Source: Anaerolineales bacterium
GTDB lineage: Bacteria; Chloroflexota; Anaerolineae; Anaerolineales; DRKV01
Assembly (NCBI GenBank): GCA_020061145.1
Contig: JAGUYX010000088.1
Coordinates: 1 to 45,869 of the forward strand
Length of the DNA stretch: 45,869 nucleotides
Reading direction: 5' to 3'
Within the stretch, counting starts at the first letter, position 1. Every line of letters begins with the position of its first letter. A program made the position numbers and the translations under genes. This document shows positions 1 through 19,273 of this stretch, piece after piece. The notes under the pieces were generated by a model. The model was not told the DNA's origin and made no database searches. It was given only the letters and a program-made list of their open reading frames with translations.

Positions 1-375
1 CAGCACCTGCCGGAATACGGCGCGTATCATGCGACGCTGATCGCTGACCCTGCGTTGCCTGGAAAGTGGCAGCCGGGTGAGGACGTGATTTACCTGCTTG
101 TATTCAAAGATGAGCTAGTTGATGGATCGACGCCGGAGGCCCAGGCTCGACGCATGCTTGCTGCTCGCCTGTCAGAAACATTGCCAATCCCTATTCTGGA
201 CGAATGGAATGAATACCTCTGGGAGGCCAGGCAGATGGAGAACTTGATCGTTGGGTTGGAAACCGGAGGCGATTGCCAGGTGGGATACCTGATACAGTTG
301 ACCGAGACTTTGTGGAAGGAGGTGATTACCAGATTATTGAAAGAACGAAAGATTCGCATTTCCAGTGGTCAATGA
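1..375 (+). CDS. hypothetical protein, C-terminal part (5' end outside the window)
   Basis: Frame 1 is open from nt 1 to the TGA at 373-375. The track ORF 55..375 starts at an internal TTG. I recognise no motif. Confidence 0.45.
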   Translation, partial: QHLPEYGAYHATLIADPALPGKWQPGEDVIYLLVFKDELVDGSTPEAQARRMLAARLSETLPIPILDEWNEYLWEARQMENLIVGLETGGDCQVGYLIQLTETLWKEVITRLLKERKIRISSGQ

Positions 376-379
376 GAAA

Positions 380-424
380 AGCCATAACAGGAAGGGATCA
401 ACTGGTTCCCCTCCTGTTATGGCT
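380..424 (-). terminator. hairpin terminator between convergent genes, closing the long minus-strand cluster
   Basis: Inverted repeat agccataacaggaaggg (380-396) / cccctcctgttatggct (408-424) with one mismatch and an 11-nt loop. On the minus strand it is followed by TTTTCTC. Confidence 0.5.
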
Positions 425-503
425 AACTCGATTAGGTCAGATTTGGGACTTTAGTAAAAGGATTCATCGATCTCATAGCAATTTTCTGGAAACAATTCGC
501 AGG

Positions 504-1208
504 TTAGGAACGATCTGGCAAGATATGGATAGAGCTCAAGCGTCCATTCTCCATCACAAATTCTGCATCACAAAGTTCATCGATTTCCTCTCGGCTATGG
601 CTGGTCAACAGGATCGTAACCCCATCAGCTCTCAGTTCTTTCAACAGTCGATGCACATCCTTTATCCCTTCCCGGTCCAAACCGTTTGTGGGTTCGTCAA
701 GAAGTAAGAGCCTGGGGTTCTCCATGATTGCCTGGGCAATTCCTAGACGCTGGCGCATTCCGGTCGAATAAGTGCGTACGGGCTTGGGTTCGTTTGGGTC
801 CAGACCAACCAGCCGTATCGTGTCTGCAATATCTTCTCTAGAAATCCTGTTCCGAATCATAGCCAATAACTGCAAATTGCGGGAGCCGCTGTAATGTGGT
901 AAAAAACCCGGAGTTTCGATCAGGACACCTGTTTCGCCAGGAAATTCCACGTCTTTCCCAATTTCTCTCCCAGATACCCAGACCCGCCCCCGAGTCGGAC
1001 GTACCAGCCCACAAATGACACGCAACAACATACTTTTACCCGATCCATTTGGACCGCTGATGCCGAAAATCTTGCCAGGCGGCACGTTCAAGCGGATTTC
1101 ATCCAGGATGAGGCGATCTCCAATTTGTTTGGAAACCCCTTCTACGGCAATGGCTAACTCTGCCTTGCTTGTGGTTTGTTCAATAAATTCTGATTTCATT
1201 TTCTCCAT
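504..1208 (-). CDS. ABC transporter ATP-binding protein, ABC-2 / immunity (LanF/BcrA-like) type
   Basis: Walker A GPNGSGKS, signature YSTGMRQRLG, Walker B LLLLDEP and H-loop LTSHS are present. Glu replaces the Q-loop Gln (GVLIETPGF). The ATG is preceded by GGAAGGAAAG. Confidence 0.9.
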   Translation of the reverse strand: MEKMKSEFIEQTTSKAELAIAVEGVSKQIGDRLILDEIRLNVPPGKIFGISGPNGSGKSMLLRVICGLVRPTRGRVWVSGREIGKDVEFPGETGVLIETPGFLPHYSGSRNLQLLAMIRNRISREDIADTIRLVGLDPNEPKPVRTYSTGMRQRLGIAQAIMENPRLLLLDEPTNGLDREGIKDVHRLLKELRADGVTILLTSHSREEIDELCDAEFVMENGRLSSIHILPDRS

Positions 1209-1231
1209 AGCTCAATCTTTCCTTCCCAATG

Positions 1232-2092
1232 TCAAATCGCGGGGCCATAGATGTCCATTCGTCGCACGTACCATGTGCCAAGACCAAACACGATTAGAAA
1301 CAAAGTGGTGTTATAGATGAGCGACCATTCCATTGAAAATCCGGGCACATTCGGATCAAAGAACGTGTGCCGTAACAGCATTGATTGAGATCCAGGTAGC
1401 CAACGACTCAAATATGGGTTGTCGATTCCCAAAAGCCAGGAAATAATCGTCACAACCGAAACCGCACTAAAGCCATAGAAAGAGCGCCTGCTGATAAGTG
1501 ATAAGGTCAACTGCATAGAAGCCAGCGCGTATAGGGTGCTGCTGAATAAGATGAAAATCCACCCCAGAAGTGTTCCAATCTCCATACCCTTCGGCACAAC
1601 CCACATCTCACCAGAGATCATCAGTTCACTTGGTTGCCAGGACCAGGGAAGGATAATCGATCCTCCGGCTAAGACGGCAAGAACGGTTATAAGTACATAT
1701 CCGACCGCAAAGATCAATAGAGCAACTTCTTTTCCAAACCACCAGCGGAGTCGGGATCCAACCAGGGGAACAACTGCGTATCCCCTATACAGCAATTCGT
1801 CGATGGCGATGTCACCGAACAGGTAGAAGAAAAGGATATGGGATATAAGCCAGGGCAACGCCTGTACCAAAGAATAACCCCAAACGCCTGGCCCGGAAAA
1901 CGAAACGAAGAAAGCATCCCAAAGATTGGCTGTCATTACGCTCTGGAAGGAACTTAACTGATCTACAACTTGTATTGCACTGCGCCACCCCGTGAATCCA
2001 AAGAGAACAAATATTCCGGCGAGGGAATGCCATCGAAGCGATGTACGCAGGTTCCAGCGCATCATGGTAAAAAATCGAGCATTACTCATCAT
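1232..2092 (-). CDS. polytopic membrane protein, putative ABC-2-type permease component
   Basis: 286 aa with several long hydrophobic segments. It has a 4-nt ATGA overlap with the upstream gene and lies 23 nt upstream of the ATPase gene. The function is inferred from context only. Confidence 0.55.
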   Translation of the reverse strand: MMSNARFFTMMRWNLRTSLRWHSLAGIFVLFGFTGWRSAIQVVDQLSSFQSVMTANLWDAFFVSFSGPGVWGYSLVQALPWLISHILFFYLFGDIAIDELLYRGYAVVPLVGSRLRWWFGKEVALLIFAVGYVLITVLAVLAGGSIILPWSWQPSELMISGEMWVVPKGMEIGTLLGWIFILFSSTLYALASMQLTLSLISRRSFYGFSAVSVVTIISWLLGIDNPYLSRWLPGSQSMLLRHTFFDPNVPGFSMEWSLIYNTTLFLIVFGLGTWYVRRMDIYGPAI

Positions 2093-2907
2093 TGCTCTCT
2101 ATGAATAAAATCTTGTTTGTGGGCAAACTTGAATCCAATGATCAGCAAAATGGAACACCATAAAAGCCAGTAATATATTGAAGTCGGTAGAGATGGATAC
2201 TGATTTGTTACGTCGCCAAAGGAGTGGAGGTTAAATAACAAGTGTTGATGGATAGACAGGTAAGCATAGGGAAGGGGTAAGTTCGCCCTTAAAGCGACCA
2301 GCCCGCTAAAGTTAGCAATGACGCCGGCGTTAAACCCAACCAGATGGTGATTAGAAAGCAGGGTGAAGCACATGACCAACATTCCCATGCCAAACCACCC
2401 AAGCGATAGTAGAAGAAGAAGCCAGCGAATGGCGGATGCGGATGAAATGATTAATGCATCTGGGTTAAGATTAAATTCCTGTGGATATTGTAGAACTGCC
2501 TGGCTCCAGGAGTTTTCCCAGGGAAGGACAAACGTGGCAACCATTGCGACGATCCCAACATTCAAACCTGCATAACAAAGCACCGCTAATCCTAAAATCA
2601 GGACTTTACTCAACCACCAACGCCTTCGCGAGCCCAGGCGTAACAAGGCGAGTTGACCAATCCCCGACTCGAGAAACAGGTCGCTGACCAGGTAGAGATA
2701 AAGCGGATTAAGCACAAAAAATACCAGATTGCCATTGCCGAAAACGCTAAATAAGACATCCCATGAATTGCTGCTCAAATCGTAATTTCTGGCACGAACC
2801 AGTACTCCTCCAACAACAATATACGAAACAAACAGAATTGTAGGGACCGGCAACAACCAGCGCACGCGCAGCAATTTTTGCTCAATTTGGAAGTACAGGT
2901 AGCGCAC
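2089..2907 (-). CDS. polytopic membrane protein, putative permease component
   Basis: 272 aa and strongly hydrophobic. GTG start with AGAGG about 10 nt upstream. Translationally coupled to the next gene. Confidence 0.55.
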   Translation of the reverse strand: MRYLYFQIEQKLLRVRWLLPVPTILFVSYIVVGGVLVRARNYDLSSNSWDVLFSVFGNGNLVFFVLNPLYLYLVSDLFLESGIGQLALLRLGSRRRWWLSKVLILGLAVLCYAGLNVGIVAMVATFVLPWENSWSQAVLQYPQEFNLNPDALIISSASAIRWLLLLLSLGWFGMGMLVMCFTLLSNHHLVGFNAGVIANFSGLVALRANLPLPYAYLSIHQHLLFNLHSFGDVTNQYPSLPTSIYYWLLWCSILLIIGFKFAHKQDFIHREQ

Positions 2908-2945
2908 AGGGATTAACCTCTGTCATTGCTTCTTTGTTAATTTTC

Positions 2946-3779
2946 TCAAATTCTATTTTTCACCTTGTGTGCCATTACGAAGTACAGCGCGGTGCTGATG
3001 GAAAATACGCCTCCTAAACTGGTTATTACTTGGACCCATGTGATATTCTTCAGCCAATGGGGAACCAAAGTTGAGACAGGCGACCAGGCCGGTATCCCCA
3101 GAATCGCCAGGCCGTAATGGATCACATTGTAAAGGACAAAGGGCGTTGCCAGGACAACATAACGATTTTCTGTAAGCGTAGAAAGCGATAATCCAAAAAT
3201 CGCGTAAGTTGCCCCAAATATAAAGCTTAATGCGATCAGGGACAAGATGTACAGACCAGGTGCTGAGTCATATAGAGTGCCAAACGGTCCAAGCGCCTCA
3301 CTTGGTTGTATACGTGCTTGAAAAGGATCTGGATTCAAACCCCTGGGCAGTATGATTACCGAAAATAGGAAGCATAAGGACATTGGTATGGATACTGCGA
3401 AACCCCCGGACAAGAATGAAGCGAAATATTTCCCCGCGAGGTACCGACGGTAGGTAGTCCTGGTCAGCACAAAACGCAGATAGCCCAAAACGCGATCGTG
3501 TGCGAATGAATCAGCGAAAGGTAGAACTGCTATTAGAGGACCGATGAGCCCGATAAGACCACTCTGAGCCCAGATCACGGCGTCATATGCGTTGTTGTAA
3601 TTTTGAGGCAATCTGGCAAGATATTCAGCATCACCCCACCAGGAGGGACCTGACATATAATCAGCGAGACCTTGAGCTAATGCAAGAATTCCCAAAACAA
3701 CTGCCAAGATAAACGGACGGCTAATGAAAGCTCGATTAATTTCTTCGCGTAACATAGCATTTGTCCAGTCACTCACCAT
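2946..3779 (-). CDS. polytopic membrane protein, putative ABC-2-type permease component
   Basis: 277 aa with about six hydrophobic helices. It is the first of three membrane genes preceding the ATPase. The start is uncertain, with an alternative ATG at 3755. Confidence 0.55.
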   Translation of the reverse strand: MVSDWTNAMLREEINRAFISRPFILAVVLGILALAQGLADYMSGPSWWGDAEYLARLPQNYNNAYDAVIWAQSGLIGLIGPLIAVLPFADSFAHDRVLGYLRFVLTRTTYRRYLAGKYFASFLSGGFAVSIPMSLCFLFSVIILPRGLNPDPFQARIQPSEALGPFGTLYDSAPGLYILSLIALSFIFGATYAIFGLSLSTLTENRYVVLATPFVLYNVIHYGLAILGIPAWSPVSTLVPHWLKNITWVQVITSLGGVFSISTALYFVMAHKVKNRI

Positions 3780-3807
3780 TGGGATTAGACAAAAAGTAAT
3801 ACGAGTA

Positions 3808-3843
3808 ACTGCGCGGACAGAGCAAACTCACTGCCCGCGCAGT
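3808..3843 (-). terminator. intra-cluster hairpin (attenuator or partial terminator) between secreted-protein genes and transporter genes
   Basis: actgcgcgg (3808-3816) pairs with ccgcgcagt (3835-3843), and 3 more bp follow an A/C mismatch. On the minus strand it is followed by TTACTCGTATTACTTTTTGTC. Confidence 0.45.
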
Positions 3844-3871
3844 CGAGTTAAGCCTCAAGCCTTTGGGCCAA

Positions 3872-4285
3872 TTAGAAGCCGCAACCTCCAGGATTGTCTG
3901 GACTCCACTTTCCAATTGCCTGAACATCAACAGGTGTGTACCAATAAGTGGCGATGCGTGCATGGTATTGCTGGCCTGCTGTCGAAGGATTTAAGGTGTA
4001 CTCTCTTCGTTGATTGTCATTTATCGATTGATAATCTGCAGCCACGCTGTTATTAAGGATCTCGATTCTGGCTCGCAGAGTATAGTCACCTCCCACAGCC
4101 TGGCTACAAACGACCGCTTTATCAGGCGAGCTCACTTTCGTTTGGTTGTTTGTTGACGTTGAACCGCCAAACTTGGGGATCGTGAGATTATAGTTATAAA
4201 ACGAGCCCGCCGCAAGCGCCTCCCCAACGACAAAAATGCCGAGGAGTGTTACGAGAAGTACTGATAGGATCACACGTGTTTTCAT
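3872..4285 (-). CDS. small secreted protein (137 aa precursor, two Cys), unknown family
   Basis: Signal peptide MKTRVILSVLLVTLLGIFVVGEALA. A perfect GGAGGA RBS lies 5 nt upstream of the ATG. The mature part is Asn/Ser/Thr-rich with two Cys (VVCSQ, GGCGF). Confidence 0.75.
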   Translation of the reverse strand: MKTRVILSVLLVTLLGIFVVGEALAAGSFYNYNLTIPKFGGSTSTNNQTKVSSPDKAVVCSQAVGGDYTLRARIEILNNSVAADYQSINDNQRREYTLNPSTAGQQYHARIATYWYTPVDVQAIGKWSPDNPGGCGF

Positions 4286-4419
4286 TTTTTCCTCCAGCGC
4301 ATTTCTTATCTCAACTTTCCATATGACTGAAAAGTTGTTTCCAGATAGATCAGATGGGTGTATGCGGAGTAATCGAGAAAATGCTTATCAATCACCTCCT
4401 GGTAATTTTTATTGAGGAA

Positions 4420-4842
4420 CTAAGGACAGGTCCAATTACTCGCATCCGTGTATTTCGTGCCTGAGAAGAAGTTCGACCAGTGAGCTCCAGTTTCATCCCA
4501 GGTGCCGCTTCGGTAACTTGTCTGGTTATGAACCAAGGCATTACCCGATGAACCTGTATCTGTAGCATTGCCCTCCGCCATCTTCACCCATTGACTGCCA
4601 TTCCAATACCATAATTTCCCATTCGTCCAGCCTTGTGCTGAAGGTGAATAGCCACTCCAGTTCAGCCAGGAATCACCCCGCGGATATCCGGAGGAACAAT
4701 TTCCCTGGCTGCGAATATTCCAGGAAGCGGCCACCGCTGTAGAGACCCCGAGAGTGAACAGCACGATCAACACCATTAGCGCAGTCAACGAGGAAAAGAG
4801 TCTTCTCCGGTTGTTTGCATTTGCCTGTATGCTCATTTTCAT
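4420..4842 (-). CDS. small secreted Trp-rich protein (about 100 aa mature, two Cys near the termini), unknown family
   Basis: I prefer the internal ATG at 4842 (AAGGAGA RBS) over the track start at 4920. The signal is NRRRLFSSLTALMVLIVLFTLGVSTAVA-AS. The mature part has 10 Trp and Cys near each end (GNCSS ... WTCP). Confidence 0.7.
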   Translation of the reverse strand: MKMSIQANANNRRRLFSSLTALMVLIVLFTLGVSTAVAASWNIRSQGNCSSGYPRGDSWLNWSGYSPSAQGWTNGKLWYWNGSQWVKMAEGNATDTGSSGNALVHNQTSYRSGTWDETGAHWSNFFSGTKYTDASNWTCP

Positions 4843-4954
4843 TTCTCCTTTATCACATAGAGGGCAGGGTCTTAATATCAACTCTGGCTGGTGATCGTGG
4901 AAGAGCTTCAGGATGGGCACTGCACTCCAAACATCTTTGAGAGATTTAAAACTC

Positions 4955-5545
4955 TTAATTAGAGATTTCCACTTGCTGCGCCAATTCTATTAGTCGGTCT
5001 GGCGGGAGATTCCCGGCAACGGTGACAATGAGATTGTTCTGTTGAAACAAGATGCGATTGTGATAATCGCCGCCCATGTCCTGAGATAACCAGGCAATGC
5101 CAATGCCGGGCAACTCAACTTTTTCTTCTCCAAGCGCGTTGATTTGTTGAAGTGCCCCTGGAGAAGGTTCCGTCAGAGTCACCAAAACGGAAAATTCTTC
5201 TCCGTTATAACGCAGGCTTGACAGCACTGCGTAAGCCTCCTGGTTTGGATCTTCCCATGACATGATCTGAGGCAGATGGATTTCGGCCTCTGGATTAATG
5301 TAAGTAGGGACCTGGCGAAGCCGGGCTATGGGCCGGTTTGATATGTCACCAGACGGAATCGGTGAGTAAGAAACGGAATCGGGTGGCGCCAATAACGGGG
5401 GTGGAGCTTCCGGCTTGGCAACCTCTTGAAGCAGAAGCGGGCTTGATTGTAGACTCATATTTGCACTGACCCCAATAGCTCCGATCAGACTAACTGATAG
5501 GGCTAAAATTAATCCACCCACGATAAACACTTTTCGACCATTCAT
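4955..5545 (-). CDS. secreted or membrane-anchored protein with a DUF4367-like C-terminal domain
   Basis: N-terminal hydrophobic signal/anchor. AAGGAGA RBS. The C-terminus NNLIVTVAGNLPPDRLIELAQQV resembles the end of anti-sigma-associated DUF4367 domains, recalled from memory. Confidence 0.65.
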   Translation of the reverse strand: MNGRKVFIVGGLILALSVSLIGAIGVSANMSLQSSPLLLQEVAKPEAPPPLLAPPDSVSYSPIPSGDISNRPIARLRQVPTYINPEAEIHLPQIMSWEDPNQEAYAVLSSLRYNGEEFSVLVTLTEPSPGALQQINALGEEKVELPGIGIAWLSQDMGGDYHNRILFQQNNLIVTVAGNLPPDRLIELAQQVEISN

Positions 5546-5677
5546 GTTCGTTATCTCCTTTCATCTCATATGGTATTTGATCGTGGTTTTACAGGTGATG
5601 TCGTATCAAGATCCTTTCAACTTTTTCAGACCCTTTAACCACCTCTCTCTCAAAATATCCATAAGCATTAAGCTACA

Positions 5678-6835
5678 TCATCGTCGCGGCAGTGACTGAG
5701 CGATCGTTCGCAACTGCTCCTGTGTAAGCATCTGCCCCGCCAGATGAAATACATCTCCATTACTTTCCCAAACCAGGTTTCCCCATTCCGGATTGCTGCT
5801 CCATTCACCGCTAGCGTTCCATGTCCCCGGATACCACCAGGCGGATATATCACCAATCGTGGTTTCTGATAACTCAACAGGACCTACCAAGAATACTGGT
5901 CCCGCCTGTTCTTTATCGGATTGGATCACGAGACCAAATTTGGTCTCACCAGCGTGGAAAACCTGGAATACCAGCCCTTGATCAGGAGGAGCTTGTATTT
6001 GCGTAAGAACCAGCAGATGGTCTGTGGGGTCTCCACCAACCAGGTAATTGATACTTAGCTGATAAGGTGGCATCGGCGGCCCGCCACCTGCCCAACTTTT
6101 GCTCGCCAGGGACGGAAACCCTAATTGCCTGACATCTCCTTCCATCACTGTCAGGTCCTGCCAGACAAAACTTTCAGGCAAATCACTGGGAACCGGGAAG
6201 CTATTCCCATCGGAGAGAATGATTAGGCTGCCCGGTACAGGAGCACTGAAACCTTCCCGACTGATTAGTTTCCATCGCTCTTTTGGATACTCGATCGTAT
6301 AGATCTCATAACCGACGTTATCCGAGCCGGCTAAAGGAGATTGCCAGTCGTGTTTCACTGCATTGACCACCAACGGCTGTAGTTTTTCTTGACGACTGAA
6401 GGAGAAACCCAACCAACCTGCCAGTACCGAACGCGTCTGTGGGATTGCAAGCAGTATACCCAAGAAGAAAATCAGGGCAAGCACACCCGCGAGACCAAGT
6501 CGCCATCCACTCGACAAGCTGTGTTCCCATTTCAAACGTAATCTGGATGAGATGTTTCTCCACCATCGAATCCCCTGTTGTGAGGAAGAAGTAACCTTGA
6601 TAGCTTTCTCCGCCTCCAAATCACCCGCTAAACTAGCTTGCATGCTCTTGACCAGGCGATCTCCCAGTTCCTGCTGAAACTCTGGCCTGGCCTGAGGTAC
6701 CGTCTCGGCAAGGTGACTGCAAAACCCGAGAATAGACTGGGCTTCTACTTTCCGATTCCCCCCCTCTTCTAGGATCTCCTCAACTTTTTCGATCAGTTCC
6801 CGATCTAAATCTGACAATTGATTATTCTCGTTCAT
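5678..6835 (-). CDS. single-pass membrane protein, putative anti-sigma factor
   Basis: It lies immediately downstream of the ECF sigma gene, and its AAGGAGGAG RBS overlaps the sigma gene's stop region. It has a cytoplasmic N-terminus, one TM (LGLAGVLALIFFLGILLAI) and a large outer domain ending LAGQMLTQEQLRTIAQSL. There is no zf-HC2 motif. Confidence 0.55.
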   Translation of the reverse strand: MNENNQLSDLDRELIEKVEEILEEGGNRKVEAQSILGFCSHLAETVPQARPEFQQELGDRLVKSMQASLAGDLEAEKAIKVTSSSQQGIRWWRNISSRLRLKWEHSLSSGWRLGLAGVLALIFFLGILLAIPQTRSVLAGWLGFSFSRQEKLQPLVVNAVKHDWQSPLAGSDNVGYEIYTIEYPKERWKLISREGFSAPVPGSLIILSDGNSFPVPSDLPESFVWQDLTVMEGDVRQLGFPSLASKSWAGGGPPMPPYQLSINYLVGGDPTDHLLVLTQIQAPPDQGLVFQVFHAGETKFGLVIQSDKEQAGPVFLVGPVELSETTIGDISAWWYPGTWNASGEWSSNPEWGNLVWESNGDVFHLAGQMLTQEQLRTIAQSLPRR

Positions 6836-6847
6836 GATGTCTCCTCC

Positions 6848-7441
6848 TTACCCCCCTGTTCGGTTTAAATGGTTAATGTATTTTCGATGCAGGCTCACCA
6901 ACGCCCTGGAAAGATGTGATGCTACAGTTCGTTCATCCAGTCCCAGGACTGTTGCGATCTCTTTATTGCGCAACCTGCCAAAAAACTTTAGCAGGATCAC
7001 TTCCTGGCGCCGTGAAGGCAACTCAAAAATCAACCGGCGGAGTTGTGCGAATTTCTCCTTTCGAAGCAGCGCATCTTCCGGAAGCAGAACACTCGCCCGC
7101 AGTTCAGGGAGTTCTTCCAGAGAAATAGGTTCATTTACTGTATTATTCTTCCGGTAGTAATCGTTCACCGTATTATGGGCGATACGAAAGATCCAGCTGG
7201 CGAATGAATTCTCGTGCTGCCACTCCAAACGAGTAATCCCTTCCATCGCTTTGAGAAAAATCTCTGAGGTCATATCTTCAGCGTCTTGAATTCGACCAAC
7301 CCGATAACTGACGTAAGCGTACACCCTGGAAAAGTAGGAATCGTATAAGTGCCTGAAAGCCAGCGGGTCGTTTTGAGCTTTCTCGACCCACTCCCGTTCA
7401 TAGGATACAGTTATTAATTGTTCCTGATAGCCCTTTTCCAT
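6848..7441 (-). CDS. ECF-type RNA polymerase sigma-70 family factor
   Basis: Region 2 reads FRHLYDSYFSRVYAYVSYRVGRIQDAEDMTSEIFLKA. The region 4 HTH reads NKEIATVLGLDERTVASHLSRALVSL. The size (197 aa) is typical of group 4 sigmas. Confidence 0.9.
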   Translation of the reverse strand: MEKGYQEQLITVSYEREWVEKAQNDPLAFRHLYDSYFSRVYAYVSYRVGRIQDAEDMTSEIFLKAMEGITRLEWQHENSFASWIFRIAHNTVNDYYRKNNTVNEPISLEELPELRASVLLPEDALLRKEKFAQLRRLIFELPSRRQEVILLKFFGRLRNKEIATVLGLDERTVASHLSRALVSLHRKYINHLNRTGG

Positions 7442-8158
7442 CTATCTATTACCATCCACATGCTGTTTTATAAACCAGCCTCTCCAAGAAGCTCCTAAGG
7501 CCAGTGAGATGATCGTTATTTCAATTAATAATCTCCAAAGTGGGTTAGTCCTCCCAGAATATGGAATCCCCAGTATCAAAAATGCTGATAAGAAGCGATC
7601 ACCCGCATACATCAGTAAGGCAGGTAGACATAGAGCCCATCTTTTATTTCCTGAAAGACTTCGCAGATTCTTTCCGATCCAATATCCATATATTGTATAA
7701 ACGCCTAAATCACACAGGTAAACAACCAGGAAGAAATAAGGCACTAATAGTACAAGCTCAATCCGGGCAATTCCCCATAATAAACCTGCCAATCCGGAAA
7801 CAATAAAGATAACGTACAAACTTCTTAACCGAAAATTTCCACTCAGCCCAATCAAAAAAATGGTTACCCTCCTACTGCACCCAAGAACCACCTTGGCACT
7901 ATGTATACCAATATGGCGGCATGGTACTTTTGAATGCACAGGACTTGTTCCATTTTCCACCAGGCTCCGCCCGAAAAGTTGCTGTTGTCCGATGCCATAT
8001 CTGGAAAATATTATGATCGTATGTTCCCTTAACAGAAAGGTAAACAACAGATGGGCCATAGAAACTCTTCGTTTTTGTACAGCTGATAAGATACCAACCA
8101 GTTCCAGATCTCCACTGTTCGGAAGACTCAGTATTGCCTCTGGCTTATCTATATCCAA
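7442..8158 (-). CDS. membrane protein: soluble N-terminal about 110 aa plus a C-terminal multi-TM part
   Basis: TTG start. The stop abuts the sigma ATG (TAG/ATG at 7442/7441). The C-terminal half is hydrophobic. The start is uncertain. Confidence 0.5.
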   Translation of the reverse strand: MDIDKPEAILSLPNSGDLELVGILSAVQKRRVSMAHLLFTFLLREHTIIIFSRYGIGQQQLFGRSLVENGTSPVHSKVPCRHIGIHSAKVVLGCSRRVTIFLIGLSGNFRLRSLYVIFIVSGLAGLLWGIARIELVLLVPYFFLVVYLCDLGVYTIYGYWIGKNLRSLSGNKRWALCLPALLMYAGDRFLSAFLILGIPYSGRTNPLWRLLIEITIISLALGASWRGWFIKQHVDGNR

Positions 8159-8159
8159 G

Positions 8160-8387
8160 TCAAGTCTTAAGGTAAGTTTCCATTTCTTCTTCCGGGGTGA
8201 TTTGCGGCATATCTAGATGCGGCTCCCGCCCATCGCTTCCTGTGTTTACCTTATCCAGGAAGCGGTAGAGTGATTCCAGGCGGGTGTGCAGCATTTCGAC
8301 TTCCCGCGCCAGGGCCAGGACCGCCATGCCCAACCCCATCACCAGCAGCCATAAGACCACATAACCGATCATCCACATGCCGCTCAT
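8160..8387 (-). CDS. small membrane protein resembling only the N-terminal TM segment of MauD-type redoxins
   Basis: 75 aa. WLLVMGLGMAVLALAREVEMLHTRLESL resembles the MauD N-terminus (LAL.RQ.GVL.ER). It has an ATGA overlap with the MauE-like gene. No thioredoxin CxxC is present. Confidence 0.5.
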   Translation of the reverse strand: MSGMWMIGYVVLWLLVMGLGMAVLALAREVEMLHTRLESLYRFLDKVNTGSDGREPHLDMPQITPEEEMETYLKT

Positions 8388-8989
8388 TGTTTTTGCTCCG
8401 TAGGTGTAAGGATAACCAGGCGCGCCATCTGCCAGATGATGCGAGCCAGCTGGTACAGGCCGGTGACGGCCAACGCTATTGGAAGCAGGTTATCAAGAAC
8501 ATAGATGTCAAGAATGAGTCGTTGGGTAACCTCCGGTAGGCCATCGAATGTCAGAAGGCCGCCGCCCCACAAAATCAGTGGAAAGACCATTATGAGGAAG
8601 GCAACGTTGCGTGCAATGATCTTGTACCCAATGATATGGCGGTGATGGCTGCCTGAACACCCGCAATCCAGGTCCGTTCGTCCGCGAGCCAGGTTGACCA
8701 CAATGGCGAACAGGAAGAGGAGCAACAGCATAGCACTAATAATGGCAGCCTCCCGCGTACGCCAGCCCAGGAGCAACATCAGGCCGAGGGCCAGTTCCAG
8801 CCAGGGGAGGGTGTAGACGAAGGGGCGTACCCAGCTCCGCGGCAGCAACCTGTAAGAAGCCACCGCCCCAGTAAAATAGCGCAGATCGCGGATTTTCCGG
8901 ACTGCTGACAAGAGAAATACTGCCGCCAATACGCTGCTTGCCAGCCTCAAAAACAACGGATCCCAAATTTGCGCAAGGATATTGCCCAT
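8384..8989 (-). CDS. MauE/DoxX-family membrane protein
   Basis: Four hydrophobic helices and the characteristic DLDCGCSG motif. I prefer the ATG at 8989, because the track start at 9109 would overlap the preceding gene by 85 nt. Confidence 0.7.
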   Translation of the reverse strand: MGNILAQIWDPLFLRLASSVLAAVFLLSAVRKIRDLRYFTGAVASYRLLPRSWVRPFVYTLPWLELALGLMLLLGWRTREAAIISAMLLLLFLFAIVVNLARGRTDLDCGCSGSHHRHIIGYKIIARNVAFLIMVFPLILWGGGLLTFDGLPEVTQRLILDIYVLDNLLPIALAVTGLYQLARIIWQMARLVILTPTEQKQ

Positions 8990-9024
8990 GTAGAAAACCC
9001 CGATATTGGCCGCGTCAGCCTCTG

Positions 9025-10473
9025 CTAAGGCTCGATGACAAACAGCGCTTCCTGGCCTGATTCCATGTGTGATCCATAAGTGACCAGGCGACTCCCATCC
9101 GGTGACCACCAGAGACGGTCAAGCCAGTAATTTGGGGCCTGCCACCGACTGAGCAACCGCCCTTCTGGAAAGCTGACGATCAGAACAGTGCCCTGTCGAA
9201 AGAAGGCCATCAGCTGTCCGTTACTCGACAAACCGCCAGAGCTTGCCTGGTCAGCAATCTTGACCGGAGCACTGCTGGGTGGATCCACCGCGCGCAGCCA
9301 GTAATCCATCTCACCGTTTCCTACCGGAGTATCGCTCAGAAACAACAACCATTTTCCGTCGGGTGAAAAGCTTCTCCAACCACCCGAGCCATCAGCGAAT
9401 GACCCTGGATAGAAGTGAAGCTCCTCGGTCTGATCGAGTTCGCTGTGGAAGAGCAGCGCCCCTTGATCCGACATCCCAAGCAGAATATGGTACTCTCCAA
9501 AGGTGGGATCGGCCTGGACTCCAATGGTCGAGACATTCTGCTCATCGTTCATCGCAAGCCCCAACAGATCAGGGAACACGTTGCTCACCCTGTCATCAGA
9601 CACAGAATAATAGAGGATACCCTTATCGACCGTCATACCAATTAGATATAACTCGTCATTGAGCCATCTCGGTCCCCCATAGACAAAATGCGGGCTATCG
9701 ATATAGGGAACCGAAACAATCGTCCGGCCGGTTCCAACTTCGGTAACCCTCAACTCAGTGTGGAAAGCCTGTTCTTCCAACTCGAGGATTATCCTTTCAG
9801 CCAAATGGCGACCATCCGGCGAGAGGTCTACCCTCGTATAAGGATTTGGCAGAGAAACGTTATCAACCGGTGCGAACGCCTCACAGGGCACTCCGCCAAT
9901 CGCCTTCCCCTCTCGATTCAGGATCGCGATCGCGCTCCCGTCCTCCTGCCAGACGACCCGGCCGCTCCCGAGGTCCTGGGCTTTCACGTCCTCGTATTGG
10001 CATGTCTCGCCAGAATCGACATTGGCAAAGGCCAGGGAGACAAGATTCTCCTCGCTCTCTCCAAGCCAGTAGGCGAACCACAGGTTTTCCGGCGCCCAAC
10101 TGTCGAAGCGCAATCGCAATCCGTCTGCGGTGATGAACGGTTCTTTGCTGGTGAGAGGAGCAGATGCAGTTGACGGGGTTTCCGTAACAGGAGCAAGGGT
10201 CGCAGTGGGCTGCGGCTCCATCTGTGTGCCGGTTGTCTTGGCCGGAGTCTTCGAGGCCTTCGCTGGCTCGACGGTTGCTTCGGTCTCCGCAGGGGCTGAG
10301 GAACTGGTGGGCGAGACTGCTGGTGAAGCCGGGGAGGCGCAGGCGACGAGGGCTAAAGCGAGTATCAGATAAATACTCAAGGAGTTCAGATAAATACTTA
10401 GCCGGAATGACTCGCTCCTGGCGCGACGAAACCTTTGGGAGGGAACAGTGATGAATTTTGGGATTTCCATCAT
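9025..10473 (-). CDS. lipoprotein with a TolB/PD40-like beta-propeller
   Basis: Lipobox LALVAC followed by an Ala/Pro/Thr/Ser-rich linker. Blade motifs LSPDGRHL, FSPDGKWLLF and WSPDGSRLV are present. Confidence 0.75.
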   Translation of the reverse strand: MMEIPKFITVPSQRFRRARSESFRLSIYLNSLSIYLILALALVACASPASPAVSPTSSSAPAETEATVEPAKASKTPAKTTGTQMEPQPTATLAPVTETPSTASAPLTSKEPFITADGLRLRFDSWAPENLWFAYWLGESEENLVSLAFANVDSGETCQYEDVKAQDLGSGRVVWQEDGSAIAILNREGKAIGGVPCEAFAPVDNVSLPNPYTRVDLSPDGRHLAERIILELEEQAFHTELRVTEVGTGRTIVSVPYIDSPHFVYGGPRWLNDELYLIGMTVDKGILYYSVSDDRVSNVFPDLLGLAMNDEQNVSTIGVQADPTFGEYHILLGMSDQGALLFHSELDQTEELHFYPGSFADGSGGWRSFSPDGKWLLFLSDTPVGNGEMDYWLRAVDPPSSAPVKIADQASSGGLSSNGQLMAFFRQGTVLIVSFPEGRLLSRWQAPNYWLDRLWWSPDGSRLVTYGSHMESGQEALFVIEP

Positions 10474-11045
10474 TTATCTGCCGATGCTGGACAATAAGCA
10501 TGGGGAGTAAAGGTCCAGGAGTAGATATTCGTCGAGGTTGTTACTCCTACTGCGCAACACGGAGCGATTGTTGAGCCTCCCGAGCGTTCCATATGCGAAT
10601 GTCGCCCTGTATAACAACCGCCACAAGCACCTGCTGGGACTGTCCCGAGCCACTTTGATGATGAGGTAAGGTTATACACCGTATTATTCGATACTTGAGG
10701 GTTATCAACATGCGCATACATCACAGAACCAATGTAATATATGGCATTTGGACATTCATATAACTCGACTTTTATTGTCCGCCGATACTGGTTTGCACAG
10801 CCAGGGCAACACCTAAGCTCCACAAAAGTCTTAATGCTTCGAATAGTTGGGTAATTAACTCTTAGATATAAATCTAAACTACCACTTATATAGGCGATAT
10901 CAACTGGTGAGGTCCCTCCTGCGCATGTACCATGAGCGCCACAAGAGCCGTTGCAAACGTCACCGTCACAGACACCGCAGCAATACTGAGTTTTTCCCGA
11001 AATACAACCGTTGCTTATTGGAGATCGAACGTATGCGGTAGCCAT
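10470..11045 (-). CDS. cysteine-rich (16 Cys) protein with a LytM/M23-like C-terminal motif and no signal peptide
   Basis: ATG at 11045 with a GGAGG RBS. The N-terminal cluster reads CISGKTQYCCGVCDGDVCNGSCGAHGTC. YAHVDNP...GTVP...YTGRHSHME parallels the M23 pattern YaHl....G.vG.TG..tGpHLHFE. The usual HxxxD appears as TSPVD. Confidence 0.6.
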   Translation of the reverse strand: MATAYVRSPISNGCISGKTQYCCGVCDGDVCNGSCGAHGTCAGGTSPVDIAYISGSLDLYLRVNYPTIRSIKTFVELRCCPGCANQYRRTIKVELYECPNAIYYIGSVMYAHVDNPQVSNNTVYNLTSSSKWLGTVPAGACGGCYTGRHSHMERSGGSTIAPCCAVGVTTSTNIYSWTFTPHAYCPASADK

Positions 11046-11073
11046 TAGAACCTCCAGAAAATTATATTTGTGC

Positions 11074-11805
11074 CTACCGATGCAGCGAGGTCTCAACGAG
11101 GTACTTCACAATTTCCTCAGAAGCTTCTCGTTTTTGGTCGTGCTCAACCACCAGCGTATACAAGATATCTTGTTTTATCCAGTGAAGAAGAGATCCCCGT
11201 TCGGTTGGTAGCATAACGCCGGGTGTGGGTGTGAAGTCAACTTTTTCTGCAGTTACCAAAACCATTTCCTCTTGCTCCCGGCTTGACAAACCTATTGACC
11301 GAAGGGGTAAGTTAATTGGCCAAATCGGGTATGGATGTGGAAATATTGGCCGTGCCGACACACTAATAAGAGGCTGGTTTCCATGAACCGAACCATAATC
11401 TATACCCACTGCAAATATCTTACCGGATTGGGTGAACCGAATTAAATTTCCTTGTATGAATTTCATGTAGGAGGGCAATGAATTCGGAACATAAGTTATA
11501 AAAGGGGCATGGCTAATCAATTCCGTAAGGTCATCGAACCAAATTGTTTCTCCTCTTATAGCCAAGGCGTCCGGATCCAGCCCATCATCCACCTGGCCTA
11601 ATATCGGAGCCGATGCGCATTGAACAAAGGGCGGTATAGGTGCTCCCTCTGGCAATAACACAAAACCGGAATATAGTTCCCCCTCCACTTCTTCATCGCG
11701 AACGTCTAAATCTATCCCCAACCGACTCCCAAGTCTTTGAAAGGGGTTTAGTACCACGCCTCCCACCAGGCTCATGAATTTGATGAAATCTCTCCTGGTT
11801 AACAT
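11074..11805 (-). CDS. Tat-signal extracytoplasmic protein, unknown function
   Basis: MLTRRDFIKFMSLVGGVVL contains a twin-arginine motif plus an h-region. A GGAAGGAGGAA RBS lies 7 nt upstream of the ATG at 11805. Confidence 0.75.
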   Translation of the reverse strand: MLTRRDFIKFMSLVGGVVLNPFQRLGSRLGIDLDVRDEEVEGELYSGFVLLPEGAPIPPFVQCASAPILGQVDDGLDPDALAIRGETIWFDDLTELISHAPFITYVPNSLPSYMKFIQGNLIRFTQSGKIFAVGIDYGSVHGNQPLISVSARPIFPHPYPIWPINLPLRSIGLSSREQEEMVLVTAEKVDFTPTPGVMLPTERGSLLHWIKQDILYTLVVEHDQKREASEEIVKYLVETSLHR

Positions 11806-11946
11806 CACCCATTCCTCCTTCCCATGCTATGCAAAAAGAGTAGAGGTTTATTTCTCCATCATTCCTTTTCGTCGGCTAATCTTCGTCAATCGCTCAACAA
11901 AAGAACCCATGACGCGTATACTTCTAGTTCTGATTTTGATAGTTCA

Positions 11947-12048
11947 TCCCTTATCCATAATAACGGGAAAGATCCCAAAATACTGCACGCAGGCAAGGGA
12001 AATCTTAAACTCTTAATCCAATTTCAAAGATGTGGATTCCATACACCT
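11947..12048. repeat. copy A of a roughly 100-bp repeated intergenic element (candidate shared promoter or leader)
   Basis: About 90 percent identical by eye to 13915-14016. It lies 142 nt upstream of the ATG at 11805, the first gene of the long cluster. Confidence 0.8.
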
Positions 12049-12647
12049 CCCCTCCACCTCTCATCTAACTTGGTGTACAGACGCCGTTAATAATCTGGCC
12101 TTGCCTGAAGAACAGAGTTGGCCAGGCGGATGCAAAAGACGATCTTTCCTTTCTGCAACAAGATCACAGCCGGCAGTATTCTTAGCGTGTTCGTTATAAG
12201 CAGAGTCCACCAGCTGTACCTGGGCCAATGCCCAGGCCTTTTACAGCATAAATAACGGCTATCTGAACCAGTATCGCGTGAATACAGTGCTGGTGCAGGT
12301 CTCCGCGAACCTGGACTGCTTGTTTCCTAATGAGGTACCGGAAGTGATTGTTACAGAGAGGGGATGCGCGGAGATACGTGTATTTACTCAGTAATGGGTA
12401 AATCGTGACTGCTCACCCATCCGAGGAAATAGAACACTGATTTTGCCGATTCAGCGAATGTTCGCGGATAAACCTTTATCGGCTCTCTCCAATCTTGGTT
12501 GGCTGGGATTTACTCTTTTCACCACCACCAAGTCACGAATAACCGCTAGAAATCCGCTCAGATCCGCAAAGTCCGCGTGATATGCGTTCTATCCGGGGCA
12601 AGAACAGGAAGGAGCCTGAGTAGTAACGTTTTTCAATCGATCTGCCC

Positions 12648-12694
12648 GCGCTTCAGCCGCACGCTTCGCTGTGCTCCGCGCGTGGCTGAAGCGC
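12648..12694 (-). terminator. long imperfect hairpin downstream of the 13863-12740 two-gene operon
   Basis: gcgcttcagccgcacgc (12648-12664) pairs with gcgtggctgaagcgc (12680-12694) with one bulge. It lies 46 nt after the stop at 12740. No clear T-tract follows. Confidence 0.35.
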
Positions 12695-12739
12695 CGGTTG
12701 GGCGTCACTGCCATAAAATGCTGGCGAGCAATACCGAGT

Positions 12740-13201
12740 CTAGGGGACCGATACCGGCATAGGTTGATCTGGATAGTAGGAGCCCATCCAGATTAGGTCT
12801 CCGGTGCGAGCGTCAAGTACGACAGTGATGTTATCATAGCGCTCTGGCGAATCTTGACCTGGTCTGGGCAAACTCACCCCTCGCCACTCAACATCCCCCT
12901 TGATTGCCAAAATAAAAACCGGAATGTCAGATGTGAGTCCGAATTTGGCTGCATCCGCTCCCAGGTCTATTCCAATTAGCGCATTCCATTCAGCTAGATC
13001 CATCCGAATAGCTTTTTGGGCCTTTGGCGCGTCTATCAATCCGGCTGCACGGGCTTCAGTAAGTGCCTTTGCAGTGAGGATCTCGTCGTCGAGCACAGGC
13101 GTAGGTAATGCTCTCCCAGCTGAGACGAGGGCAAAGGTCAACATTAGAAACAGCACCAAAATGCCAGCAAAGAGCAGACTTCTATTTCTGCGCTTCATCA
13201 T
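12740..13201 (-). CDS. secreted or membrane-anchored protein, unknown function
   Basis: N-terminal signal/anchor RRNRSLLFAGILVLFLMLTFALVSA. An AAGGAGGA RBS is present. Confidence 0.7.
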   Translation of the reverse strand: MMKRRNRSLLFAGILVLFLMLTFALVSAGRALPTPVLDDEILTAKALTEARAAGLIDAPKAQKAIRMDLAEWNALIGIDLGADAAKFGLTSDIPVFILAIKGDVEWRGVSLPRPGQDSPERYDNITVVLDARTGDLIWMGSYYPDQPMPVSVP

Positions 13202-13215
13202 AATAATCGTCCTCC

Positions 13216-13863
13216 TTAACTGTGTCCGTCTCCATCGTCATAAAATGAGTTTGAGCCATTGTCAGTATTGAAGTAAGGAGCATCATCTGCGTAGTTTACA
13301 TGGCCGTTCCAAGACACAAATACAAATGTTCCATCAGGATTTCGCTTCGAGTAGCGTAGATCCCAAAGCTTGGTGTGCCCCATACTTTCGACACCATAAG
13401 CTACTTCGCCTCCGCCAATCACCGCATCTCCATCAGAGAAGTTGGCATTAACATTCGCAACATTGCCGCCATCTACGTAGAACCAGTACTTCCCTGTATT
13501 AGGATCGTACTGCATACTGTACCGGTGAGTAGCGGCTGAGATAACTACATTCATCTGTTTAGCGCCACTCCCATCATTATACCCAATGGCACCGCGAATA
13601 CCTGCTGTTGTCTTTTGCCACCCGAATTCCACGTAACGCCATGGGTCCCACTGAACTACCCCTGCACGATTGTAAACCCACTGGCCACCATCTCCCGTGT
13701 CCAAGTCGGGGTTCGTCCAATTGATATACGCCCATGCTCCCCACGCTACGATGTCCTTTTTCTCAGTAGCATTGTGGAGAGCGCCAGTATGCGCCTGCAC
13801 CTCTGTGGAGACTCCTCCGATCAGGATAATTGTTACTAAAACAACTAAAGCTAACTTCTTCAC
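13216..13863 (-). CDS. secreted beta-rich protein (possible LamG/ConA-like jelly-roll)
   Basis: I prefer the GTG at 13863 (GAGAGGAGGA RBS 6 nt upstream) over the track start at 13956, which lies inside the repeat element. The signal is KKLALVVLVTIILIGGVSTEVQA. THRYSMQYDPNTGKYWFYVDG is LamG-like, which is a fold guess only. Confidence 0.65.
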   Translation of the reverse strand: MKKLALVVLVTIILIGGVSTEVQAHTGALHNATEKKDIVAWGAWAYINWTNPDLDTGDGGQWVYNRAGVVQWDPWRYVEFGWQKTTAGIRGAIGYNDGSGAKQMNVVISAATHRYSMQYDPNTGKYWFYVDGGNVANVNANFSDGDAVIGGGEVAYGVESMGHTKLWDLRYSKRNPDGTFVFVSWNGHVNYADDAPYFNTDNGSNSFYDDGDGHS

Positions 13864-13914
13864 ACTGATCCTCCTCTCTTGACAAATTCGAGCTAACCTT
13901 AACTTGTGACCAAT

Positions 13915-14016
13915 TCCCTTATTCATAATAACGGGAAAGATCCCAAAATACTGCATGCAGGCAAGGGAAAATCTTTAACTCTTAATCGATTTCTTTGATG
14001 TGGATTCCATTCACCT
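13915..14016. repeat. copy B of the roughly 100-bp repeated intergenic element
   Basis: It aligns with 11947-12048 and shares the core cataataacgggaaagatcccaaaatactgca(c/t)gcaggcaaggga. It lies 52 nt upstream of the GTG at 13863. Confidence 0.8.
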
Positions 14017-14243
14017 GTCTCCCGGCGGGCCAGGTCAACCCAACCTATCCTTCGGGGGCCATCGAAGACGGGTTGCTGAAAAGCCATCAACCGTCCGCCC
14101 TACGAACAGGTGGCTATGACTTTGGTTCCAATAATATTATCCGATCCTCGTGGAAAAGAAGCCAGCAGGCGGGGAGCAGGATCATCGAAACGCAGCGTGT
14201 AGAGCCGGGCGCTGCGATAGTAAACGAAGTCCTGGTCGATTTG

Positions 14244-14942: not shown

Positions 14943-14948
14943 AGCTCA

Positions 14949-14954
14949 ATTATA
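14949..14954 (-). promoter_or_regulatory. TATAAT -10 box 6 nt upstream of the ATG (leaderless-type) for the truncated LAL gene
   Basis: The minus strand reads TATAATTGAGCTATG. No Shine-Dalgarno sequence is present. Confidence 0.45.
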
Positions 14955-15063
14955 TTACGCCCCTCTTGTTTCCGGTCTTCCTAGGGAGGAACTGACTGGA
15001 CAGAAACCAATCTCCACCGATCACTTCTTATAGAGATAAACGACGATACCGTAAGACAAATAG

Positions 15064-15423: not shown

Positions 15424-15505
15424 ATTCCAAAACCAATTGAAGCGCTGCTGCCTAGCATCACGAAAATCTTAACCAGTGGATCCATAAGATCTCCTCAAAA
15501 TGATC

Positions 15506-19247: not shown

Positions 19248-19273
19248 GATTTGCTCCTTTTATTTCAAATAAG

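Follow-up and report, generated by a model that had tools for sequence, protein, structure and literature searches.

Peptidases of the M23 family are defined by an H(x)nD motif, an HxH motif, a catalytic His about 30-40 residues before the HxH and an oxyanion Tyr (PMC9662197), and LasA uses H(x)12D (PMC9662197). The M23A enzymes, such as LasA, beta-lytic protease and pseudoalterin, have a catalytic domain of ~180-190 amino acids (aa) with a beta-sheet core, and need a pro-region of ~200 aa as well as thiol-disulfide oxidoreductases: beta-lytic protease is not produced without its propeptide of ~170 aa, and the BdbDC oxidoreductases are also needed (PMC8715609). [quoted passage not shown] Only in a 2026 preprint was MauE seen as a DsbB-like disulfide catalyst, replacing DsbB with its CXC as the active site (bioRxiv 10.64898/2026.03.05.709764). 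Tat "hitchhiker" pairs, in which adjacent genes share one twin-arginine signal, are known as well (PMC4273604, PMC10924467). Here we analysed a contig of 45,869 nucleotides (nt) from an Anaerolineales bacterium (JAGUYX010000088.1, assembly GCA_020061145.1), which we call the window, and describe in it a conserved cassette of five genes that we compare with these systems.

The block of interest, positions 504-11805, holds 15 credible genes according to the list of open reading frames (ORFs), all of them on the minus strand. A preliminary description, made from the sequence alone, had correctly placed every credible ORF on that strand, had counted 16 genes (its own list also gives 15) and had read the block as a single self-regulated module centred on an extracytoplasmic function (ECF) sigma factor. 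We label the genes g1 to g15 in order of transcription, with g6' for a revised, real gene inside a 238-aa ORF. We found that the block is made of two or three unrelated cassettes joined at a scar and is not one system: cassette A (g1-g5, 8160-11805) and cassette B (g6'-g11, possibly with the transporter genes g12-g15). We consider it reasonably probable that the cassettes are inherited separately, that A is a kit, mostly of Chloroflexota, for making a secreted Cys-rich M23-related enzyme, and that B is an ordinary ECF pair. Cassette A comprises the following genes:

11074-11805, minus strand: g1, 243 aa; its twin-arginine signal is MLTRRDFIK, and its mature domain bears a weak likeness to LolA/RseB

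10470-11045, minus strand: g2, 191 aa, 16 Cys, without a signal peptide; an unannotated family

9025-10473, minus strand: g3, a 482-aa lipoprotein with an LVAC lipobox, a Ser/Pro/Thr linker and a PD40-type beta-propeller (Pfam PD40, E 3.5e-7)

8384-8989, minus strand: g4, a MauE membrane protein with the start MGNILAQ and a CGC motif (PF07291, E 1.8e-29)

8160-8387, minus strand: g5, a 75-aa single-pass membrane protein without Cys, resembling the N-terminus of MauD

Significant matches in the Pfam and NCBIfam libraries were confined to g3 (PD40), g4 (MauE), g7 (ECF sigma) and g15 (ATP-binding cassette (ABC) ATPase). The preliminary identification of the Tat motif TRRDFIK, the 16 Cys, the PD40 lipoprotein, MauE, the ECF sigma factor and the ABC ATPase was upheld, and the set still matches no characterised system. 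Likewise, no maturation enzyme for ribosomally synthesized and post-translationally modified peptides (RiPPs) was found among the window genes.

With g2, g1 and g8 as queries we fetched 46 related loci (contigs labelled L0xx) and mapped all window proteins onto them. We found that the genes g1-g5 co-occur in ~25 distinct Chloroflexota loci (42 fetched), with g1 directly upstream of g2 in 38 of the 38 loci where the contig permits the test. MauE and g5 follow in ~10 distinct cassette A loci and g3 in closer relatives, its homologues being found in L003/L004/L007, L014, L036 (twice), L037/L038, L040 and L041/L042. In L036 (5744-11397) the g1-g2-g3 triplet is tandemly duplicated and then followed by a single MauE at the contig end. 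Homologues of g6-g14 were not found within 10 kb in cassette A loci, including the closest ones, L037 (g2 identity 73%) and L041/L042 (75%), and the genes after g5 are unrelated: SRP54, spermine synthase, a META-domain protein and response regulators. All genome hits of cassette A are metagenome-assembled genomes (MAGs) of Chloroflexota, from Anaerolineae, Thermoflexus and unclassified Chloroflexota.

The sigma, anti-sigma and secreted-protein genes of cassette B were in turn found without g1-g5 in L043, L044 and L045, at 50-95% aa identity. L043 carries g6'-g7-g8-g9-g10-g11 in the window order behind unrelated upstream genes, with 87-95% aa identity for g6'-g10; its g6' homologue (5168-5578, 136 aa) is ~91% identical. 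L044 has g7-g8, two other genes and then g9-g10 (identity ~50-58% for g7-g9, 75% for g10), and L045 (~80% identity) has g7-g10, a 3.2-kb insertion and then g12-g13. The 3.2-kb segment of L045 (2294-6000) encodes a GerE-type regulator and three further proteins, secreted or membrane-bound; it stands in place of the 3' end of g10 and the larger part of g11, and what is left of g10 is frameshifted. The single ECF-centred module of the preliminary description thus fails the co-conservation test which that description had itself proposed, across the 46 related loci.

The junction between the two cassettes contains the following feature:

7872-8114, minus strand: truncated pseudogene, of which the final 80 codons, interrupted by a stop, of a secreted-protein gene are left; identified by comparison with L043 and L041

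Positions 8114-7872 encode 'WRSGTGWYLISCTKTKSF...YWYT*CQGGSWVQ*' in a minus-strand frame other than that of the 238-aa ORF. The parent gene, which encodes a secreted, Trp- and Cys-containing protein, is intact in L043 (4348-5151, 267 aa) and L041 (2252-3061, 269 aa), and the homology between the window and L043 starts at 8116, inside the truncated pseudogene. Taken together, this start of homology and the truncated gene indicate that the cassettes meet at a rearrangement scar, marked, as judged from these comparisons, by the pseudogene, and that the apparent 1-nt junction behind g5 is an artefact. We conclude that a rearrangement, in which a gene was truncated, joined the two cassettes. The "polytopic protein" of the preliminary description (7442-8158, 238 aa) is therefore partly spurious, as it overlaps the pseudogene; the real gene is 7442-7855. 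We found no paralogy among the pseudogene parent, the neighbouring secreted proteins and g9-g11, except that L043_299 matches L044_306. In L041 (2252-5291) the insertion of an IS66-family transposase separates the gene of the 269-aa secreted protein from the g6' homologue. This insertion lies ~5 kb upstream of cassette A and is a further sign of a rearrangement-prone neighbourhood.

Much of the packing reported earlier is real. The sequence shows 4-nt ATGA overlaps at 10470-10473, 8384-8387 and 2089-2092 as well as a TAG/ATG abutment at 7442/7441, and the larger gaps lie where they had been placed (3780-3871, with a hairpin, 4286-4419 and 5546-5677). The exceptions are the g5 junction, which is really a pseudogene remnant of ~300 nt, and the g9-g10 gap, which becomes ~118 nt instead of 34 nt if g10 starts, as is most likely, at 4836. 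However, the minus-strand genes run unbroken past the block to ~32 kb, through MalT-like regulators, dehydrogenases, RNase D, a GNAT enzyme and SPFH/NfeD proteins. With such unrelated functions in the same run, co-directionality says nothing specific of the 504-11805 block.

For g2, the preliminary description had the Cys count right and had missed the likeness to M23 metallopeptidases. None of 34 close g2 homologues has a Pfam domain, and the few with a source name are called "hypothetical protein". An exhaustive profile search showed that the family comprises about 214 representative clusters at 50% identity, nearly all of 170-200 aa and starting at the first profile position, and thus without a leader. 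Across 81 diverse members D49, C80, H112, H149 and H151 are invariant, and H38, C22, C144, C164 and Y175 are conserved in at least 90%; of the 16 cysteines, ~9 are well conserved among close homologues. Conserved Cys positions are 22, 31, 41, 79/80, 144, 163/164 and 185. The AlphaFold (AF2) model (pLDDT 95.3, pTM 0.90) has an all-beta fold, and most of the top 35 Foldseek matches in the PDB are M23 peptidases. Whole-length matches are LasA (3it5), Lysobacter beta-lytic protease (BLP, 8af1) and pseudoalterin; further matches are LytU, Csd1/2, ShyA, LytM and lysostaphin, while a Foldseek search of the viral library BFVD returned mainly phage M23 domains and endolysins.

The family also offers a set of residues corresponding to the M23 motifs: H38(x)10D49, H112, H149xH151 and Y175. 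The H(x)nD motif is present as H38-x10-D49, and the HxH with its upstream His and downstream Tyr is present too. We compared the g2 family by hhalign with profiles of M23A and M23B sequences taken from the PDB search output (P 0.0028 and 0.0022, respectively). The alignment places YAH112 with YYH81/YMH82 and H149-S-H151 with the HLH of LasA (H120/H122) and of lysostaphin, and misaligns the H38-D49 segment. A direct sequence link between g2 and M23 was sought and rejected, since neither a profile search of the PDB nor scans of 25 and of 81 members with Pfam gave anything significant. Because no sequence method is significant alone, we file g2 as a distant M23-like family, outside PF01551, an assignment drawn from motifs and a predicted structure. 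Compared to the M23A enzymes, g2 has a similar length and a predicted beta-sheet core, and its H(x)nD, putative catalytic His, HxH and Tyr follow one another as they do there, at comparable distances (H-x12-D in LasA, H-x10-D in g2). It differs from them in having 16 Cys against 4, no significant sequence similarity and no PF01551, no signal peptide and no covalent propeptide; and, unlike M23A, the family occurs almost only in Chloroflexota MAGs. Two apparent chimeric or truncated gene calls, P0223 and P0034, join g1-like or PD40-like parts to the C-terminal part of g2.

P0127 and P0176, two remote relatives within the g2 family, each have a lipoprotein signal peptide of their own and a linker in place of a partner gene, which speaks for a role of the g2 domain outside the cytoplasm. 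In the window the twin-arginine signal sits on g1, which is, on the evidence of gene order, an obligate upstream partner of g2. Its motif T-R-R-D-F-I-K is followed by a hydrophobic stretch, and R4, R5 and F7 are invariant in 24 homologues. No Pfam or NCBIfam match was found for g1. Its AF2 model (pLDDT 85.7) has as best Foldseek matches RseB/MucB, which are LolA-type half-barrels, at E 0.005-0.1. Four g1 paralogues (P0050-P0052 and P0055) have the first ~50 residues, including the signal peptide, close or near-identical to the window g1 and mature domains only ~37% identical to it, a pattern that points to a family of paralogous carriers, or to gene conversion, among close relatives; P0050-P0052 were matched to none of the fetched loci. 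In L003/L005/L006/L007, all of one Anaerolineales lineage, the opposite strand carries genes for TatA and TatC ~3-5 kb upstream of the cassette, perhaps by coincidence.

Furthermore, both g1-g2 lineages, the MauE-type and the Thermoflexus-like, include a thiol-redox component and a large downstream lipoprotein. In the window the former is g4, which scores 103 bits against PF07291 (gathering score 27) and carries its CXC motif after the third membrane helix as DLDCGCSG. The motif CGC(F/S)G is present in 11 of 11 cassette MauEs, along with a conserved K (SAVRK) and a conserved E (WLELA). Thermoflexus-like loci lack MauE, and there the g1 homologue is extended at its N-terminus by ~100 aa that contain YDxGCxxC (L008 8946-9953, L010 4190-5185, L027 8968-9942, and also L012, L024 and L028). 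This extension weakly matches DCC1-like thiol-disulfide oxidoreductases (E 0.003), so that a DCC1-like domain on g1 where MauE is missing gives a second redox link for the g1-g2 pair. Large lipoproteins follow g2 in distant loci too, the one in L027 being a WD40/PD40 beta-propeller. The redox maturation proposed in the preliminary description is retained for cassette A only, where a MauE with CGC lies beside a Cys-rich protein.

The short gene g5 is 39-59% identical to a short ORF after MauE in every locus with sequence beyond MauE. Its "MauD-like stub" label finds weak support. A weak N-terminal likeness exists (TIGR02661 positions 4-58 of 189, E 0.004-0.016, 15-17 bits against a cut-off of 188.6), and the MauD thioredoxin-fold domain with its CxxC is absent from g5. 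By this comparison g5 is not a MauD, and its likeness is limited to the N-terminal membrane anchor. Cassette A therefore resembles the MauA/MauE/MauD arrangement in gene order and differs from a mau cluster in several respects: MauA, MauB and MauG were not found among the window genes scanned with Pfam and NCBIfam, g2 is M23-like, g5 has neither thioredoxin domain nor Cys, and the Tat signal sits on the partner g1 and not, as in MauA, on the Cys-rich protein.

From these observations we propose how cassette A may work. In our model g2 would be an enzyme of ~190 aa with a putative M23-type zinc site and without a signal peptide. The protein g1, the sole bearer of an export signal, would bind folded g2 in the cytoplasm and carry it out as a Tat hitchhiker; with g2 lacking an export signal and P0127 and P0176 having lipoprotein signals, Tat hitchhiking on g1 is the simplest reconciliation. 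After export, g1 may serve as chaperone, inhibitor or activator, replacing the covalent propeptide of M23A. MauE (g4, with its CGC) and the small partner g5 would put disulfides into g2 outside the cell, and the lipoprotein g3, with its beta-propeller, probably holds the enzyme at the envelope or regulates it there. As substrate we consider peptidoglycan likely, or some other peptide rich in Gly, whether from the cell itself or from a competitor. That g2 binds zinc and is a peptidase, that it forms a complex with g1, that this complex hitchhikes through Tat, that MauE acts on g2, and what the transcription units are, is all what we infer from the comparisons above. A bolder formulation, which we put forward tentatively, is that g1 and g2 form a "split pre-pro-enzyme": a zinc-loaded M23-like enzyme Tat-carried by a LolA-like chaperone and locked by MauE with a MauD remnant, possibly directly on its client.

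Several precedents fit this proposal in part. M23A enzymes depend on a pro-region and on oxidoreductases, and cassette A pairs g2 with g1 and MauE; the pre-pro role would here fall to a separate gene with a Tat and not a Sec signal and a LolA/RseB-like fold. The known hitchhiker pairs (hydrogenase HybOC, DmsAB, PaoABC and the FAD-GDH subunit) share with g1-g2 adjacent genes and one twin-arginine signal. However, they are redox enzymes with complex cofactors, whereas g1-g2 has a putative zinc hydrolase as cargo and a LolA-like carrier, in a complex that is only predicted. The LolA-like GerS is an allosteric activator of the peptidoglycan amidase CwlD, likewise a LolA-fold protein paired with a zinc-dependent cell-wall hydrolase (putative for g2). 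In that case both protein families differ from g1 and g2, GerS is a Sec lipoprotein, and the LolA assignment of g1 is weak.

Cassette B and the transporter genes comprise the following:

7442-7855, minus strand: g6', a 137-aa small membrane protein with a TTG start and the ribosome-binding site (RBS) GGAGGG, abutting the sigma gene

6848-7441, minus strand: g7, ECF-type sigma factor (Sigma70_r2 E 3e-16, r4_2 E 8e-14)

5678-6835, minus strand: g8, putative anti-sigma factor with one membrane span at about residues 113-131 and an extracytoplasmic domain that has a weak DUF4367 match at its end

4955-5545, minus strand: g9, a 196-aa secreted protein with a signal peptide and a weak DUF4367-like C-terminus (PF14285 E 0.13)

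4420-4836, minus strand: g10, a small secreted Trp-rich protein with 4 Cys, start revised

3872-4285, minus strand: g11, a 137-aa secreted protein with a signal peptide

2946-3779, minus strand: g12, a polytopic protein with ~6 hydrophobic spans, putative ABC-2-type permease component

2089-2907, minus strand: g13, a polytopic protein and weak paralogue of g14 (25% identity, E 2e-9)

1232-2092, minus strand: g14, a polytopic membrane protein

504-1208, minus strand: g15, ABC ATPase of DrrA/ABC-2 type (ABC_tran E 5e-31)

In our reading cassette B is an ordinary ECF sigma/anti-sigma pair with a shifting set of small secreted proteins. The sigma factor g7 has sigma70 regions 2 and 4 only and a co-conserved downstream membrane protein, g8, as expected of an ECF factor; it scores 102 bits against TIGR02937 (cut-off 42.9) and reaches no subgroup cut-off. 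In L043, L044 and L045 alike, the sigma gene is immediately followed by g8. Its homologues carry PF14285 (DUF4367), for which the window g8 gives E 0.022. The pair thus resembles ECF/DUF4367 anti-sigma pairs in its sigma regions 2 and 4 and its single-pass membrane protein downstream, and departs from them in that g8 has no recognised anti-sigma domain and its own DUF4367 match is below threshold. Two of the secreted proteins, g9 and g10, travel with the sigma pair, as does g11 where contigs allow, while other small secreted proteins shuffle in and out: g9 lies beside g8 in L043 and L045 and two genes further in L044, g10 is 75-95% identical in L043 and L044, and of g11 the first 46 aa are identical up to the contig end of L043 and a C-terminal remnant only is left in L045.

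Each of g9, g10 and g11 stands behind a spacer of 118-134 nt. The start of g10 is most likely at 4836, judged from the sequence, because an RBS and the start of the L044 homology lie there. The stretch upstream of g10 (4837-4954) is near-identical in the window, L043 and L045, where the proteins on either side share only 76-89% identity; a conserved leader or a regulatory region may lie there, or else a GTG-extended ORF from 4920 may be real. A shared ECF-type promoter was sought by eye upstream of g6', g9, g10 and g11 in the window, L043, L044 and L045, and no convincing motif was found. We also considered g10 as an RNase T1-like toxin and rejected it: the phmmer match has E 0.064, the alignment starts in the signal peptide, and H40, E58, R77 and H92 are unaligned. 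No result pointed to a function for g9, g10 or g11.

The linkage of the transporter to the sigma unit is testable in L045 only, where it holds. There g12 has 82% identity; it has no Pfam match. With a DrrA/ABC-2 ATPase and paralogous permeases, g12-g15 resemble LanFEG/ABC-2 exporters. The best NCBIfam match of g15 is TIGR03740 (lantibiotic protection), at 170 bits against a cut-off of 309.75. The genes are unlike LanFEG in that the ATPase is far below this lantibiotic-protection cut-off and that there are no bacteriocin or RiPP genes. With permeases that match no family, the "immunity-type exporter" of the preliminary description therefore remains a label.

The elements that had been described as bracketing the block, a repeat upstream and a terminator-like hairpin downstream, were both found, together with a second hairpin within it:

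11947-12048, minus strand: repeated element of 103 nt, ~140 nt upstream of g1, with a 90% identical copy at 13915-14016

3807-3844, minus strand: G+C-rich hairpin of 14 bp between g11 and g12 (-34.4 kcal/mol, z -3.1)

382-424, minus strand: terminator-like hairpin, an 18-bp stem followed by UUUUCUC (-42.4 kcal/mol, z -4.84)

The hairpin at 382-424 closes the block and faces a convergent plus-strand ORF, and that at 3807-3844 is a possible attenuator or terminator. A scan for consensus promoters and terminators gave counts no higher than in shuffled sequence, and an Rfam scan found only a distant tRNA.

The second copy of the 103-nt repeat (13915-14016) lies upstream of the gene of a secreted protein (13216-13956), which probably begins in truth at the internal VKKLALV, and just downstream of a truncated MalT/LuxR-type gene (14244-14942), with two full-length paralogues further upstream. 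The element was absent from all 46 related loci. We rejected it as a structured RNA or riboswitch (folding z 0.19, no Rfam match, absent from related loci); it may be a shared promoter or a LuxR-type operator. In other loci a GerE/LuxR-type regulator, either a small helix-turn-helix protein or a response regulator, precedes cassette A; in the window its place is taken by the 103-nt repeat. LuxR-type control of cassette A via the 103-nt element is therefore a plausible lead. The MalT/LAL-type paralogues (AAA_16, TPR_MalT and GerE) are at 14244-14942, 20237-22888 and 25493-28231; of the first, only the N-terminal 232 aa are left. As repeat families D1-D4, D7 and D8 show, MalT/LAL regulators, along with parts of the sequence downstream of them, were duplicated as segments. 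The G+C content is 0.44-0.56, lower and more variable, in positions 1-20000 of the window, and mostly 0.53-0.61 in 20000-45869. The left 20 kb holds both cassettes and many small secreted-protein genes, which fits an accessory, often rearranged region.

We weighed three other explanations of the block. That the 15 genes are one self-regulated operon, with the ECF sigma factor controlling redox maturation, secreted proteins and an immunity-type exporter, is in our judgement very improbable. The genes share a single strand and several tight junctions, no strong terminator separates g5 from g6' (the only strong terminator-like hairpin being that at 382-424), and L041 has a g6' homologue and the 269-aa gene ~5 kb from cassette A; yet ~25 distinct loci have A and lack B, three have B and lack A, a truncated pseudogene forms the A/B junction, and the same-strand run spans 30 kb of unrelated genes. 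Moreover, spacers of 118-134 nt and a hairpin interrupt cassette B, and elsewhere cassette A sits behind GerE/LuxR-type regulators and not behind an ECF sigma factor. Somewhat less improbable, although we doubt it strongly, is that cassette A encodes a bacteriolysin, a class III bacteriocin-like enzyme, for which the adjacent ABC-2 transporter and the ECF factor give self-protection and regulation despite separate inheritance. The ATPase far under its family cut-off, the permeases that match nothing, the lack of an ABC transporter or recognisable immunity gene at all other cassette A loci and a g2 target that may be self or non-self argue against this explanation, for which one can cite the role of M23A enzymes and lysostaphin as antibacterial exoenzymes (PMC9662197, PMC8715609), the lantibiotic-protection family as best NCBIfam match of g15, and a rearrangement-rich region of lower G+C than the right half of the window.

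It is unlikely, though less so than either of these, that g2 is inactive, that is, a degenerate LytM-like protein or a Zn- or Cys-rich binding protein (a hydrolase regulator or a metal/redox protein), with g1 an independent Tat substrate whose adjacency reflects a shared process. Many LytM-domain proteins, among them EnvC, NlpD and DipM, have no catalysis of their own and act as activators (PMC9662197), and 7qrl is among the Foldseek matches of g2; M23 membership is not reached at the sequence level, and the high, variable Cys content could bind metal. However, degenerate LytM domains typically lose the four catalytic and zinc positions, which are invariant or nearly so in 81 divergent g2 members. 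A signal-less protein whose relatives have lipoprotein signals also needs an export route, and an independent g1 sits poorly with its adjacency to g2 in 38 of 38 testable loci and with the duplication of g1-g2-g3 as a unit.

Several results weigh against the reading that we prefer, of separately inherited cassettes of which A makes a secreted M23-related enzyme. The Foldseek scores of g2 are weak: E 0.004-0.1 and TM 0.38-0.46 for the top matches of the two libraries, and E 0.02-0.4 and TM 0.3-0.43 for the M23 matches in the PDB. g2 has no Pfam match and no PDB sequence match at E up to 10; among 81 members Peptidase_M23 (PF01551) matched just 2, at E 0.16 at best, and a Pfam scan of 25 members gave nothing. 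The Tat signal of g1 is called from its motif alone (Pfam TAT_signal E 0.23), its LolA/RseB likeness is weak (TM ~0.27), and in Thermoflexus-like loci the RR motif of g1 (RRRLLQQG) and its hydrophobic stretch are internal, which misfits a cleavable Tat signal of the classical kind. A relationship of g1 to the DUF4367 proteins g8 and g9 is unsupported (hhalign P 0.27 and 0.42). Cassette A holds no thioredoxin-fold partner for MauE. Finally, no terminator lies between A and B in this genome, so co-transcription by read-through is possible.

Taken together, these results indicate that, in this genome, tight same-strand packing does not mark a functional unit, and that a rearrangement scar can hide beneath a long ORF. 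What we consider worthwhile in this locus is a conserved five-gene cassette, mostly of Chloroflexota, that would combine an unannotated M23-like enzyme with a separate export partner and its own MauE. To our knowledge, natural clients or partners of MauE outside methylamine dehydrogenase are not known. Cassette A provides a compact, conserved candidate MauE-client pair, tractable in E. coli, and also holds a MauD-like anchor that lost its thioredoxin domain. Chloroflexota are filamentous, abundant in wastewater and sediments, and have envelopes that are poorly understood. The g2 family keeps the full M23 catalytic signature yet escapes every profile library, which is relevant to the annotation of Chloroflexota cell-wall hydrolases. 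If our model is true, g2 would be the first Tat-hitchhiking cell-wall hydrolase, widening the cargo range of Tat hitchhiking, and the first dedicated MauE client outside methylamine dehydrogenase.

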